DNA of 64,000 nt from an uncultured virus (IMG/VR IMGVR_UViG_3300009419_000009) (lineage: Duplodnaviria; Heunggongvirae; Uroviricota; Caudoviricetes), in the IMG/VR virus record IMGVR_UViG_3300009419_000009, positions 1-64,000 of that record. The stretch is one strand, 5' to 3'. Position numbers and translations under genes: made by a program. How positions within the stretch are numbered: position 1 is the first letter of the stretch; every line of letters begins with the position of its first letter. Of the stretch, positions 13,086 through 18,952 are shown in pieces. Under the pieces are notes generated by a model. That model was not told the origin of the DNA and did not search any database. It saw only the letters and a list, made by a program, of their open reading frames with translations.

Positions 13086-13161
13086 TGGAGCCCCCTGAGG
13101 GATTCGAACCCCCGACTAACTGGTTCGAAGCCAGCTACTCTGTCCACTGAGTTAAAGGGGC
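13086..13161 (-). tRNA. tRNA-Arg(UCG)
   Basis: CTGG-CTTCGAA-CCAG, CCA. Confidence 0.93.
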
Positions 13162-13487: not shown

Positions 13488-13590
13488 ATAATTAGTGCTA
13501 GATTGTTTACTGCACAACCTAGCAAAGCAGGGGTCTGTAGACTGCATACAACTTGTCTCATTGTACTCCGTATGCAAGGGAGAGATTGAA

Positions 13591-13808
13591 TTTGAGAGCC
13601 TACGCCGCGTTTATCGTAGATTTATTCAGGACTTACCGGCCGCCTAGCCTGACCTCGCTCGCGATGGATATCACTTGGGCGCCTGTCCAGTTAGCAACCA
13701 ATCTGCACCGCTCTTCCGAGCAGCCGGGAGTTGAACCCGTCCCCTTTTACTATTTTGGTAGTTCGAACTTACCTAGATAGCGTGACTGCGCTTGCTGACA
13801 CTCTCAAA
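13591..13808 (-). ncRNA. Putative structured ncRNA (~220 nt), family unknown
   Basis: Closed by TTTGAGAG/CTCTCAAA stem; internal T-arm-like CGGG-TTCAACT-CCCG; GC-rich; no convincing ORF. Confidence 0.6.
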
Positions 13809-13811
13809 ACT

Positions 13812-14742: not shown

Positions 14743-14747
14743 ATAAT

Positions 14748-14909
14748 ACCATATGGAAACACACTAGTGAGCCAGTCTAACGCAGCCATCGCAACTTTGC
14801 AAGTCGTTTCCAACTTGTGTATCGTCTTTCTGGGCGAGCTGTATGTGTAGAGCTCCGCAAGTTCTCAATGCAATCGCTTGCAAGGACAACTAGTATGTTT
14901 TCATATGGT
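14748..14909 (-). ncRNA. Conserved-stalk hairpin RNA, copy 4
   Basis: ACCATATGAAAACATACTAGT...ACTAGTGTGTTTCCATATGGT terminal stem; begins in the ACCA of tRNA-Lys(UUU). Confidence 0.6.
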
Positions 14910-15060: not shown

Positions 15061-15120
15061 TTGTACGTATTGTTTGATTTTACGTGCCAACCCTAGACCA
15101 TACGGATGCCTAGAGCGACA

Positions 15121-15141
15121 CTAGAGTTTACCTCGTTTCAT
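15121..15141 (-). CDS. Minigene/leader peptide MKRGKL
   Basis: AAGGAG SD (15148-15153) 6 nt before ATG AAA CGA GGT AAA CTC TAG. Confidence 0.6.
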   Translation of the reverse strand: MKRGKL

Positions 15142-15164
15142 GTCAATCTCCTTGATTAAATAAA

Positions 15165-15357
15165 ATGCTCTGCGAACCCCGGTGGTAATTATACCGTATC
15201 AGACCTTTGGAGTCATCACGCACGGCCTCCACCCACTTCCCGACGGGTTCCGTTGTCGCATTGCCAGCGGCCTTTCGGTAGGAAGACTACCACCCTTGGC
15301 TATCACACCACTTCTCATCGTGCGGGTCACACTATCTGCTGATTAGGCAGAACGTTC
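15165..15357 (-). ncRNA. Putative structured ncRNA (~190 nt), family unknown
   Basis: GC-rich non-coding block; long-range CGCACG/CGTGCG and GGTGGTAGT/ATTACCACC complementarity. Confidence 0.55.
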
Positions 15358-15417
15358 TAGCTACAGGACACTTGTGTTGTTTAAGCCTGAGCACGGATGC
15401 AAGGCTCCTCTAAAAAT

Positions 15418-15664: not shown

Positions 15665-15672
15665 AAATTTTT

Positions 15673-15803
15673 ACCATATAGAAACACACTCGGCTCCCCT
15701 TACAACCTTGTTCCTGTCAATTCAGGATGCACCTGGAATGAACCCAGCGGATCTCCTTGGTTGTTTGTATCTGTCAATTCAGATTGAAAATGTGTTCTTA
15801 TAT
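15673..15803 (-). ncRNA. Conserved-stalk hairpin RNA, copy 3
   Basis: ATATAAGAACACATT...AGTGTGTTTCTATAT; two internal CTG-AATTGA-CAG hairpins. Confidence 0.6.
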
Positions 15804-15806
15804 AAT

Positions 15807-15890
15807 ACCATATAGAAACACACTGGCTGTTGCTTGTCATTGTCTTTAACTACCTCTCGGTGGCGGTAGACCAGTGTGTTTTTATATGGT
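15807..15890 (-). ncRNA. Conserved-stalk hairpin RNA, copy 2
   Basis: ACCATATAAAAACACACTGG...CCAGTGTGTTTCTATATGGT. Confidence 0.6.
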
Positions 15891-16773
15891 GGAGGACTGA
15901 GAATACATCTCTCCCATAAGCACCTCAAGCATTATTGTACACCTTGCGAGCGTACTTTCTCTTGACTTCCACTCGGGTCCTTGCGGATCTCCTAGTCTGC
16001 TTACAGTATCGCCGTTTTTAACGTCAAGCAGTAGACGTGTCATCATATGCTATTCTGCGGATTCCATTCCGTTAGCCTTGCGAGCTATTCAGGTGCGCTA
16101 ACACCTTACGAACCCCCCTCCACAAACTAATGTCACCTTGCGAGCTTCATTAGACTTGATTCACTTGCGTGTCAAGTATTAGATACTTTTCACATATGAC
16201 CGAGGCAGTCTTTGCGTTTTTGTAATGATAGTTGGGATTTGAACCCGACTGCATCCAGCTTAAAAGGCTAGCGTTCAACCATTGAACTTTATCAACCTAC
16301 CGTGATGAGCTACCTCTGTTGCTATATAATCTTTTGGACTACATAATACAACTCACCACATACCTTTCCTCTTGCGGAGTAATCAGTGATGTTTCACGAC
16401 CAGTGTCCTGCTTCAAAACAGTCCACCACCCATTAACATTGCACACGAGCCCTTGGGTGCAACCCCTCGAACCAATATACTACCCTTTCTCATACCTGTT
16501 GACAAGTTGGTTTTGTATGGAAGTCAGCACCACCTGTTACTTTTCATGCACCCTGGTTCCCTTACGGGCCAGTCGATACACATTCTTCCCCATACACTTG
16601 CTTCACAGTTACAACCACCGGTCTTATCAGTGATCGCTACCTTGCGATAGTGAGCAGGCTTGTTTACATGAACCATCTCTGGCGCAGGAGTGTAGGACTC
16701 ATCTGCTTTGGGTAGGTCACCCTACTTATTCTTCGTAGACGGCAAGCCGCCTACAGGACAATAAACTGCCCCG
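15887..16773 (-). ncRNA. GOLLD-like giant structured RNA (~890 nt)
   Basis: No credible ORF; at least 7 CGCAAG tetraloop-type motifs; long-range helices 16763-16773/16201-16211 and GTGGAGG(~16116-16122)/CCTCCAC(3' end); size and phage tRNA-cluster context fit GOLLD; not confirmed by CM search. Confidence 0.7.
16225..16296 (-). other. tRNA-Lys(UUU)-like element embedded in GOLLD-like RNA
   Basis: D-arm GTTC/GAAC, CTAGC-CTTTTAA-GCTGG, T-loop TTCAAAT, short TGATA/TATCA acceptor, no CCA. Confidence 0.7.
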
Positions 16774-17116: not shown

Positions 17117-17190
17117 TGCCCAAGGAGAGACTCGAACTCTCAAAATTTGGCTTCTAAGACCAACACGTATACCAATTCCGTCACCTGGGC
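17114..17190 (-). tRNA. tRNA-Leu(UAG), short variable loop
   Basis: TTGGT-CTTAGAA-GCCAA, 77 nt, CCA. Confidence 0.88.
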
Positions 17191-17251
17191 ATTGCTTTTT
17201 AACGATGTTAAAGAACATTTGTTCGTCTGCAAACGATGTTGCAGTTGGGTT

Positions 17252-17280
17252 AGTGTAACTGCAATTTGCATTGCTGTCAA
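17252..17280 (-). promoter_or_regulatory. Sigma70-type promoter (tandem, proximal)
   Basis: TTGACA-17-TACACT. Confidence 0.75.
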
Positions 17281-17353
17281 CTAATTTTTCTACTGTGTTG
17301 CAAAACAACAACAGCACCCTTGTTAGCAACACGATGTTTGCTACAGTTTCACA

Positions 17354-17382
17354 AGTATATGTGATCCTGGCATTGCTGTCAA
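17354..17382 (-). promoter_or_regulatory. Sigma70-type promoter (tandem, distal)
   Basis: TTGACA-17-TATACT. Confidence 0.8.
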
Positions 17383-17754: not shown

Positions 17755-17866
17755 TGCCTGGTAGTGTGCGATCATTACTAATCTCAGTCGCAGACCACAA
17801 GGCCACTGGCATAAATGAATATGCTTGGCTATGCTGTTTGCAGTTGAGAACGAATGTCGGTTTCAT
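17726..17866 (-). CDS. 46-aa leader peptide containing all 20 amino acids
   Basis: MKPTFVLNCKQHSQAYSFMPVALWSATEISNDRTLPGTKGPGDSHS; A-rich leader with AAGGA; promoter upstream. Confidence 0.72.
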   Translation of the reverse strand: MKPTFVLNCKQHSQAYSFMPVALWSATEISNDRTLPGTKGPGDSHS

Positions 17867-17920
17867 TTTGTTTCTTTTTCCTTTGATACTCAGTACATTA
17901 TTGCACTGTGTAAGTCTTGT

Positions 17921-17949
17921 ATTGTAGAGATATTTAGCAATGCTGTCAA
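17921..17949 (-). promoter_or_regulatory. Sigma70-type promoter with TAAATA late motif in spacer
   Basis: TTGACA-gcattgcTAAATAtctc-TACAAT. Confidence 0.82.
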
Positions 17950-17995
17950 CCTCTTATGGTTTATTTAGTCTTTTGTTGTTTTTTCACAATGTATC

Positions 17996-18085
17996 TGGTC
18001 CCCCGTTGCAGAATCGAACTGCATCCTGGACCTTATCTAGATTAATCGTGTATAAAACGACCTGCTCTCCATGAGCTAACGGGGG
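17996..18085 (-). tRNA. tRNA-Ile(UAU) with long extra region
   Basis: GTCGT-TTTATAC-ACGAT, ~21-nt variable region, CCCCCGT/ACGGGGG acceptor, CCA. Confidence 0.78.
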
Positions 18086-18095
18086 ATTAAAAACT

Positions 18096-18180
18096 TGGTA
18101 CCCCCGACCGGACTCGAACCGGTACGCCTCAACGGCGGCAGATTTTAAGTCTGCTATGTCTACCATTCCATCACAGGGGC
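18096..18180 (-). tRNA. tRNA-Leu(UAA)
   Basis: GCAGA-CTTAAAA-TCTGC, long variable arm, CCA. Confidence 0.95.
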
Positions 18181-18187
18181 ACGATCA

Positions 18188-18235
18188 TCATAAAGATGAT
18201 ATTCGTAATCGGCCTATGTAGAATGGAGTGTTCAT
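18188..18235 (-). CDS. Leaderless minigene MNTPFYIGRLRISSL
   Basis: ATG 6 nt after the -10 box; ATA x2, TTA x2, CGA x2; tandem TGA TGA stop. Confidence 0.55.
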   Translation of the reverse strand: MNTPFYIGRLRISSL

Positions 18236-18241
18236 GTGTGT

Positions 18242-18270
18242 ACTATAACTTGAATATTTATTTATGTCAA
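18242..18270 (-). promoter_or_regulatory. Sigma70-type promoter with TAAATA in spacer
   Basis: TTGACA-17-TATAGT. Confidence 0.75.
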
Positions 18271-18744
18271 CCGCGATTCTTCAATTTCTAACCAGGTGTG
18301 GTCACCCATGTATTTCACTTGCGTTTGGTATTCGTAGTCTTCGGGTGCAGAGCTTGACCAATCGTTAGGCCCATGGTGTGTCAGTAGAACATGTTGTTTG
18401 CGCTTGTCCCAGACCAACCAGTAAGTCTGGCCCATCACAGGACTGAACTGATATACAGCGGCATGCACTGCATCTGTGACATCTAGTCGTCGTTTGATTG
18501 ACTGTGCTTGTTTTTCCAGTACTGAGACCAGTTCCATGATCCTGTCGTACTCTTGCTGGGCATACATCCTAGCATGGTTGATCATGAGATCTTTTTGCTG
18601 TGTAACGGGCACAAGATCAAACTTGGGTCCACCTGCTTCAGTTGGGTAAGGTGTTACATTACGATTAAAAAACGGAATAATCCCGCCTGTGGTGGTAGAG
18701 TCATAACTGTCTCTGCCCTTGGCTAGGTTTGATTTTTTTTCCAT
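18262..18744 (-). CDS. DUF2452-like protein
   Basis: Coiled coil followed by VH.A.YQF.P..GQTYWL and GP.DW, recalled as DUF2452-like. Confidence 0.55.
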   Translation of the reverse strand: MEKKSNLAKGRDSYDSTTTGGIIPFFNRNVTPYPTEAGGPKFDLVPVTQQKDLMINHARMYAQQEYDRIMELVSVLEKQAQSIKRRLDVTDAVHAAVYQFSPVMGQTYWLVWDKRKQHVLLTHHGPNDWSSSAPEDYEYQTQVKYMGDHTWLEIEESRLT

Positions 18745-18840: not shown

Positions 18841-18915
18841 TGGTGGGCTCACTGTGAATTGAACACAGACTCAATCGATTATGAGTCGACTGCTTTACCA
18901 TTAAGCTATGAGCCC
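18841..18915 (-). tRNA. tRNA(CAU), probably Ile2 (lysidine type)
   Basis: TCGA-CTCATAA-TCGA; GGGCTC acceptor resembles Ile2; CCA. Confidence 0.8.
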
Positions 18916-18923
18916 AAATTGCT

Positions 18924-18952
18924 ATTGTATGATTTATTTAGATTGCTGTCAA
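18924..18952 (-). promoter_or_regulatory. Sigma70-type promoter with TAAATA in spacer
   Basis: TTGACA-17-TACAAT just upstream of the first tRNA. Confidence 0.82.

Follow-up and report, generated by a model that had tools for sequence, protein, structure and literature searches.

What would a 15-codon reading frame be doing between a phage promoter and a pair of tRNA genes, when two of the rare codons that it carries are those that the downstream tRNAs decode? The locus that raises this question lies on the minus strand of the window, by which we mean the whole 64,000-nucleotide stretch of DNA analyzed here, corresponding to the opening 64 kb of an IMG/VR virus record of 121 kb, the completeness of which was put at about 35%. 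The source is a very large phage, given that the 121-kb record is only about 35% complete, and an identical copy of the locus was present on a 371-kb metagenome contig (L225). All 33 tRNA genes recognized by ARAGORN in the window are on the minus strand, and the RNA libraries holding parts of the locus originated from lake water. The -35 box of the promoter overlaps the TAA stop codon of the upstream gene, which encodes a DUF2452 protein, the only Pfam match among the neighboring proteins; three of these were also compared with PHROGs and had no match. The frame closes with two TGA codons, the first ending 7 nt and the second 4 bases upstream of tRNA-Leu(UAA), and 10 bases separate the latter from a 90-nt tRNA with anticodon UAU. 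Judged from the sequence comparisons and predicted folds described below, the best explanation of this arrangement is a self-contained control module composed of a promoter, a leaderless or near-leaderless mini-ORF, tRNA-Leu(UAA), and tRNA(UAU).

Features of the mini-ORF and tRNA locus, with positions numbered along the window
Feature	Position	Strand	Remarks
Sigma-70-type promoter	18242..18270	-	TTGACA (18270-18265), 17-nt spacer, TATAGT (18247-18242); 11/12 consensus positions; followed by ACACAC and the ATG (18235)
Mini-ORF, MNTPFYIGRLRISSL	18188..18235	-	15 codons + TGA (18190-18188); second TGA 18187-18185; ORF kept in 14/14 records
Rare-codon block CGA TTA CGA ATA	18200..18211	-	Codons 9-12; invariant in 12 aligned sequences
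Additional rare codons	ATA 18217-18215; TTA 18193-18191	-	Outside the 4-codon block
Leader 'anti-tRNA' segment	18213..18228	-	Codons 3-8; complementary to tRNA-Leu bases 4-21
Local hairpin	18181..18206	-	ACGA/UCGU + UAUCAU/AUGAUG, loop CUUU; predicted fold
tRNA-Leu(UAA)	18096..18180	-	ARAGORN, Rfam tRNA model; bases 4-21 (18177-18160) are the leader-pairing target
tRNA, anticodon UAU (reads ATA)	17996..18085	-	ARAGORN, Rfam tRNA model; long variable arm with 7-nt loop YAGAUAA
tRNA-Arg(UCG)	13086..13161	-	ARAGORN; the phage's own CGA reader, in a separate tRNA cluster

The initial annotation of this DNA had placed an ATG six bases (ACACAC) past the -10 box, and this is where it lies (18235-18233). 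The A of the ATG is the seventh base past the -10 hexamer, which is the usual start position, and each of the 11 aligned relatives has the same spacing as the window. In these 12 sequences the -35 box is invariant, as is the TAAATAA that follows it, and the six bases between the -10 box and the ATG vary (ACACAC, GCACAC, ACATAC, ATACAC, ATCTAC, ACACGC). With this spacing the mini-ORF would be leaderless, its ATG falling at the predicted +1. The spacing differs in two further relatives, in which the ATG begins 4 nt (L220, fifth base) or 9 nt (L236, tenth base) past the -10 box. In L239 the promoter has been lost and the ORF kept, so that the ATG stands 18 nt after a tRNA-Arg(UCU) rather than at a primary 5′ end. 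The mini-ORF ATG has no Shine-Dalgarno sequence upstream of it, and the model therefore rests on leaderless initiation. RNA contigs joining the leader to both tRNAs were found in four lake libraries from one study (18003-18244, 17796-18219, 17959-18213, and 18047-18205). One of these ends at 18244, 9 nt upstream of the ATG, but being an assembled contig it is uninformative on the 5′ end and does not support the predicted start. None of the listed RNA pieces extends into the upstream gene, an observation to be read as one on assembled contigs, from libraries that possibly contained DNA, which carry no information on ends, strand, or level.

The codon list of the initial annotation is identical to the sequence, reading ATG AAC ACT CCA TTC TAC and ATA GGC ahead of the block and TCA TCT TTA TGA TGA after it. 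Six of the 15 codons are ATA, TTA, or CGA (two each), and all three are minor codons of this phage, accounting for 15.4% of Ile (ATA), 11.9% of Leu (TTA), and 9.6% of Arg (CGA) codons in 32 long window ORFs, where the preferred codons are ATT (54%), TTG (30%), and CGT (45%). Every Ile, Leu, and Arg codon of the window mini-ORF is a minor one, for which the chance, given the amino acids, is ~3e-6 by arithmetic from these codon shares. TTA and ATA are the codons decoded by the two tRNAs directly downstream, and the identity of these genes, as proposed in the initial annotation, was borne out by ARAGORN, which called tRNA-Leu(taa) at 18180-18096 and tRNA-Ile(tat) at 18085-17996. The Rfam tRNA model scored tRNA-Leu at 53.4 bits and tRNA(UAU) at 40.2 bits when the latter was searched alone, having missed it in a wider search. 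The other tRNA clusters of the window had no comparable mini-ORF.

The second of the two tRNAs deserved separate scrutiny. In an alignment of 12 copies, compensatory changes were present in 15 of the 19 predicted pairs and the UAU anticodon was invariant. Its variable region, 18-28 nt in length, consists of a covarying 3-5-bp stem and a nearly invariant 7-nt loop, YAGAUAA, while the anticodon loop of the phage tRNA-Ile(GAU) (14742-14668) reads UUGAUAA. Comparison of these two loops indicates that the extra arm of tRNA(UAU) presents an anticodon loop of the isoleucine type in which U33 is replaced by A, and this arm may be a recognition handle for isoleucine-charging or modifying enzymes. In a nematode, a class II tRNA(UAU) is reported to receive leucine (PMC3333845), so that the phage tRNA(UAU) may carry isoleucine or another amino acid. 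The tRNA reads AUA whatever amino acid it carries, and AUA reading is what matters for the leader.

The surrounding tRNA region contains several other features. A tRNA-Met gene (18915-18952, minus strand) starts 8 nt past the -10 box of a consensus promoter (TTGACA-17-TACAAT), such that its primary transcript would have almost no 5′ leader for RNase P. A GOLLD RNA (Rfam RF02032; 198 bits, gathering score 150) is located within the region at 15894-16359 (minus strand), and nested in it is a match to the tRNA model (16223-16296) not called by ARAGORN. Three small hairpins at ~17200-17345 (minus strand), between promoters at 17382/17280 and tRNA-Leu(UAG) at 17190, have different stems (AGCAA/TTGCT, TGCAA/TTGCA, and TTTAA/TTAAA) and a common loop core, CATCG, and resemble a recognition element repeated within the leader of a different tRNA. 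The 18-nt motif GTGTGTTTCYATATGGTA is present in three exact copies on the minus strand (14747-14764, 15672-15689, and 15806-15823), where none is expected by chance; two of these are just upstream of tRNA-Ile(GAU) and tRNA-Tyr, and the motif may be a phage-specific promoter or processing signal. Finally, two G+C-rich spacers between tRNA genes on the minus strand, 13488-13811 (324 nt) and 15061-15417 (357 nt), lacked a convincing ORF and matched no Rfam model at gathering score; they may be new structured RNAs.

Relatives of the locus were collected in several ways. The DUF2452 protein had 537 relatives in viral contigs, from which 80 loci were kept, and blastn searches of these with the leader region returned leader-spanning matches in 11. 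Among the first 40 loci, ARAGORN placed tRNA-Leu(UAA) after the DUF2452 gene in 18, ten of which had a gap of ~90 nt and a second tRNA following; in the other eight the gap was 6-42 nt and both the leader and the second tRNA were absent. No tRNA followed the DUF2452 gene in the remaining 22, one of which, L026, is cut at that place. A metagenome scan that fixed just the promoter and the 5′ end of tRNA-Leu, with any leader content allowed between them, recovered nine loci, all nine with the ORF and the block. Two more scans of viral contigs added L087/L088, L236, and L239. With duplicates and L026 left out, the working set comprised 14 records and 13 distinct leader-plus-tRNA sequences; it comes from lake metagenomes and represents three diverged but related leader types, and its members are thus not fully independent samples. 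The module was present in three genomic contexts, namely after the DUF2452 gene, after tRNA-Arg(UCU) (L236 and L239), and in another, unrelated stretch (L087/L088).

Beyond this set the leader appeared to be restricted. When 17900-18400 was compared by blastn with named phage genomes, only the tRNA-Leu part was matched, in 48 records, each of which covered less than 80% of the query, and tblastn of the same genomes with a 444-aa neighbor protein gave no match, leaving the locus with no annotated relative. A scan for the 12-mer of the block together with CTGTG yielded mostly chance matches, the five true relatives among the 80 listed loci all being already in the set. In an arbitrary sample of 80 other phage tRNA-Leu(UAA) loci with the same 5′ core, among the matches listed, none had the block, and in L268 and L322 the Leu(UAA)-tRNA(UAU) pair exists without this leader. 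These two observations indicate that the leader is clade-specific and no general companion of this tRNA pair.

Within the set, the mini-ORF was conserved in a manner connected to its reading frame. The initial annotation had named non-conservation of the rare codons as grounds for refuting its proposal; we found CGA-WTA-CGA-WTA in frame with an ATG, and with no intervening stop, in all 14 records, across three leader types. These are the window type (MNTPFYIGRLRISSL), the commonest type (MNYK[AG][FLH]HS[IL]R[LI]RIR), and the type of L220 and L236 (MLKMTLLSIGRIRLPSSW and MQKLSLFIGQRIRLPSSW, respectively). The block is CGA TTA CGA ATA in the window and common types, CGA ATA CGA TTA in L220 and L236, and TTA CGA ATA CGA ATA CGA in L239; in the last three, TTA and ATA have swapped places or replaced each other via first-base changes, and both codons are kept in every variant. 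The distance from the ATG to the block is 24, 27, or 30 nt, and that from the upstream ATA to the block differs by inserts of 0, 3 (GGC or GGA), or 6 nt (GGA CAG), so that all length differences are divisible by three. The third positions of the block codons are invariant and the N-terminal half of the peptide varies, a combination that fits selection at the codon or nucleotide level and does not fit selection on the peptide. In the common leader type the stop is at codon 15 as TAA, TAG, or TGA, in four different hairpin sequences, and in every variant it lies 0-4 codons past the block and 6-20 nt before the tRNA. A chance origin of the layout was rejected on the basis of this conservation across relatives.

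The stop codon is held by a hairpin on which the initial annotation was silent. It forms in the stretch from the block to the tRNA in all 13 distinct variants, with predicted energies of -6.6 to -11.3 kcal/mol, and 0 to 23 of 500 shuffles per variant were as stable. Its stems covary, in that at least five unrelated ones were found, paired in each case with the complementary strand (ACGA.UAUCAU, UACGAAUAC, ACGUUAAC, ACGUUGAUC, and GAUUACCAA). In all variants the 5′ arm shares bases with the 3′ part of the block, and the stop is in the loop or an arm; in the window, the 5′ arm overlaps the final part of the rare-codon block, with the stop codon in the 3′ arm. The hairpin is AU-rich and followed by no U-run in any of the 13 variants, and is thus no intrinsic terminator. 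As there was no terminator-like site between 18235 and 18180, classical terminator-based attenuation was rejected.

The other predicted structure of the leader involves the tRNA itself. In the minimum free energy fold of 18235-18096, leader bases 18228-18213 pair with tRNA-Leu bases 18177-18160 in a 16-bp helix that encloses the hairpin, and no acceptor stem forms. The complementarity between leader and tRNA-Leu described in the initial annotation thus has a counterpart in this helix, although its CGAT/ATCG part is taken up by the local hairpin in the predicted fold. The duplex has an energy of -19.6 kcal/mol, which four of 1000 dinucleotide shuffles of the leader equaled, and the leader's own tRNA ranked first of the 33 window tRNAs for pairing with it, the next best reaching -14.6. 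With leader bases 1-28 held single-stranded, the constrained fold that the initial annotation had put forward as a check, the cloverleaf was the best structure, as expected there (-40.7, versus -46.8 unconstrained).

Across the relatives, this pairing was uneven. Besides the window it was clear in L220, where one of 1000 shuffles did as well, and of moderate strength in L222, L087, and L014 (8, 11, and 19 of 1000, respectively), but the other nine records behaved like shuffles (75 to 275 of 1000 as good), such that 9 of 14 did not beat shuffles at 0.05. The conservation of the complementarity, whose absence the initial annotation had likewise counted as refuting, thus held in part of the set only, and the proposal made there of a stalled ribosome that lets the tRNA fold is partly supported. 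Best folds had at least five leader-tRNA pairs and no acceptor stem in 11 of the 13 distinct variants, and masking the leader gave the full 7-bp acceptor stem in all 13; the cloverleaf was retained in the best fold of L013, L016, and L224. The predicted acceptor stem was also broken when the 5′ part of the leader was shuffled, 36 times in 200 trials with the window leader and 610 times in 2600 over all variants, and the energy models used for folding ignore tRNA tertiary structure. In the common type, a 9-bp helix was 88.9% paired and two of its pairs had changed on both sides (U-A to A-U), with 39 of 500 column shuffles scoring as high. When leaders and tRNAs were swapped, for only 4 of 12 leaders was the native tRNA variant the best partner or tied for best. 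The shared pairing core is small, comprising YAYAG in the leader and tRNA bases 5-9, CUGUG. On these fold predictions we treat the leader-tRNA pairing as real in the window, and elsewhere consider it plausible as a kinetic trap rather than a proven conserved helix.

The order of elements is the same in every variant: an anti-tRNA strand, the block of slow codons, a stop-holding hairpin that starts in the block, 1-11 unpaired bases, and the tRNA. From this order and its conservation, we infer a translated leader that senses codons, is operated by the ribosome in the manner of an attenuator, and has tRNA folding or processing as its output, a proposal to which we give about an even chance. A 70S ribosome would load on the 5′-terminal AUG and run into the slow codons, first AUA and then CGA-UUA-CGA-AUA, two of which would be read by the downstream tRNAs and CGA by the phage tRNA-Arg(UCG), acting on the leader in trans. 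If these tRNAs were scarce, the ribosome would linger at codons 9-12, covering codons 3-8 just upstream and keeping the hairpin melted. With the leader covered in this way, the 5′ half of tRNA-Leu would be free to pair with its own 3′ strand, form the cloverleaf, and be cut by RNase P. If they were plentiful, the ribosome would reach the stop inside the hairpin and leave, the hairpin would re-form, and by doing so would place the free leader segment beside tRNA bases 4-21. Leader and hairpin would then be free while the 5′ half of the tRNA emerges, at which point synthesis of its 3′ partner strand is still about 60 nt away, and the leader-paired precursor would be caught in a non-tRNA fold, to be poorly processed or degraded. 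The tRNAs would mature only while ribosomes remain slow on their codons, and the net outcome would be negative feedback on rare-codon tRNA supply. The more specific form of this reading, in which the leaderless mini-ORF with codons of the Leu-UAA, Ile-UAU, and Arg-UCG tRNAs acts as a ribosome-operated lock on co-transcriptional tRNA folding, is one that we advance more tentatively, as possible but somewhat short of even.

A rival reading is that the leader is never translated. The hairpin, and in some variants the helix, could form part of an untranslated, structured 5′ leader of the tRNA precursor that sets the timing or route of its processing, or its stability, with RNase P, RNase E, or RNase III as possible enzymes, and the ATG and frame would then be by-products. 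The hairpin is the best-supported structure, with covarying stems in 13 of 13 variants, and the lack of a Shine-Dalgarno sequence, the persistence of the leader in L239 with no promoter at the ATG, and the unevenness of the tRNA pairing across records are all in keeping with such an arrangement. However, it fails to explain why the ATG is fixed at the predicted +1, why length differences come in multiples of three, why TAA, TAG, or TGA appears at one codon position across different hairpins, and why the invariant 12-mer matches the adjacent tRNAs in frame. In L004, L006, and L087, moreover, bases 1-9 or 1-10 of the 12-mer are outside the main stem and yet invariant. We consider an untranslated leader unlikely.

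Frame-related features are equally unexplained if the tandem hexamers (UACGA-N, two or three copies) are a site for a phage or host RNA-binding protein that switches the hairpin, opening or closing it as repeat-binding antitermination proteins do, or are a DNA operator past the promoter. The exact block motif occurs once in the 121-kb record, and its one-mismatch copies number three, the same as for a reversed-pattern control; this lack of regulon-like spread led us to reject the block as a repeated operator, and the candidate site has no named binding protein. The six-base spacing is unusual for DNA operators, which counts against that version in particular, while strict nucleotide invariance with a 6-nt periodicity, three UACGA units in the commonest leader type, and the overlap of the block with the 5′ arm of the hairpin are what a protein site would predict. 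Overall, we regard a protein-binding site as quite improbable. A functional basic, hydrophobic peptide of 14-18 residues with the core I-(G)-R-[LI]-R-[IL], made from a transcript that the tRNAs merely share, is more doubtful still and in our estimate very improbable, since the ORF is conserved and R-[LI]-R-[IL] occurs in all variants but the core has no synonymous variation despite the preferred CGT, ATT, and TTG, the N-terminal half is not conserved, and the length ranges from 14 to 18 residues.

A ribosome-operated, codon-sensing leader would have its closest counterparts in the leader-peptide transcription attenuators of amino-acid operons, which include trpL, hisL, leuL, pheL, thrL, and ilvL. 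For pheL, an attenuator of this kind is reported in PMC3082878. Like these, the phage locus has a short 5′ ORF packed with codons whose decoding depends on the operon product (six of 15 here, with the block in frame in 14 of 14 records), the codon block is in or beside a strand with predicted alternative partners, and a hairpin overlaps the end of the ORF. Unlike them, it lacks an intrinsic terminator and a Shine-Dalgarno sequence, and has its ATG at the predicted +1; tRNAs would be the products under control, with a tRNA cloverleaf as the competing structure in the place of the antiterminator. The signal would be the amount of tRNA and not its charging by an amino acid that the operon makes.

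Other systems share parts of this logic. The minigenes of lambda bar have two or three codons, a ribosome-binding site, and the rare AUA, and lead to peptidyl-tRNA drop-off. They resemble the module as very short phage ORFs with a rare AUA codon that interact with the tRNA pool, and differ from its 14-18 codons, absence of a ribosome-binding site, and fixed place before cognate tRNA genes. The T-box riboswitch is similar in that a leader reads the state of a specific tRNA via a codon-like element, but the module has no T-box or specifier-loop architecture and would sense via the ribosome, not by direct tRNA binding; an Rfam scan of 17900-18300 at E up to 1 returned tRNA and a chance snoRNA match only, with no T-box match. 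In the translational attenuation of erm and cat genes, reported for example in PMC8274638, stalling of the ribosome on a leader ORF changes how the RNA downstream pairs, with no terminator involved, as the stalled ribosome would here. The stall in those cases comes from a drug together with the nascent peptide and frees a ribosome-binding site, whereas a codon- and tRNA-dependent stall in the phage leader would free the 5′ half of a tRNA. As for initiation, a bacterial 5′-terminal AUG is reported to be able to bind ribosomes and start a short frame influencing downstream expression (PMC4965119); those cases precede protein genes, while here the genes are for tRNAs and the start site is predicted only. 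In the open full-text literature we found no account of a leader ORF controlling tRNA genes, subscription-only papers, including older work on the T5/T4 tRNA regions, being outside the scope of that search.

How the many tRNA genes of large phages are controlled in their expression is almost unknown. If the proposed control by a translated, codon-sensing leader is true, these phages would have a way to read decoding capacity directly and to set their tRNA supply accordingly. Attenuation logic would then act on RNA folding and not only on termination, extending leader-peptide attenuation to a non-coding RNA output, with the tRNA's own cloverleaf serving as one arm of the switch. The module would, in addition, represent a compact, portable part of about 55 nt that reports the availability of chosen tRNAs.
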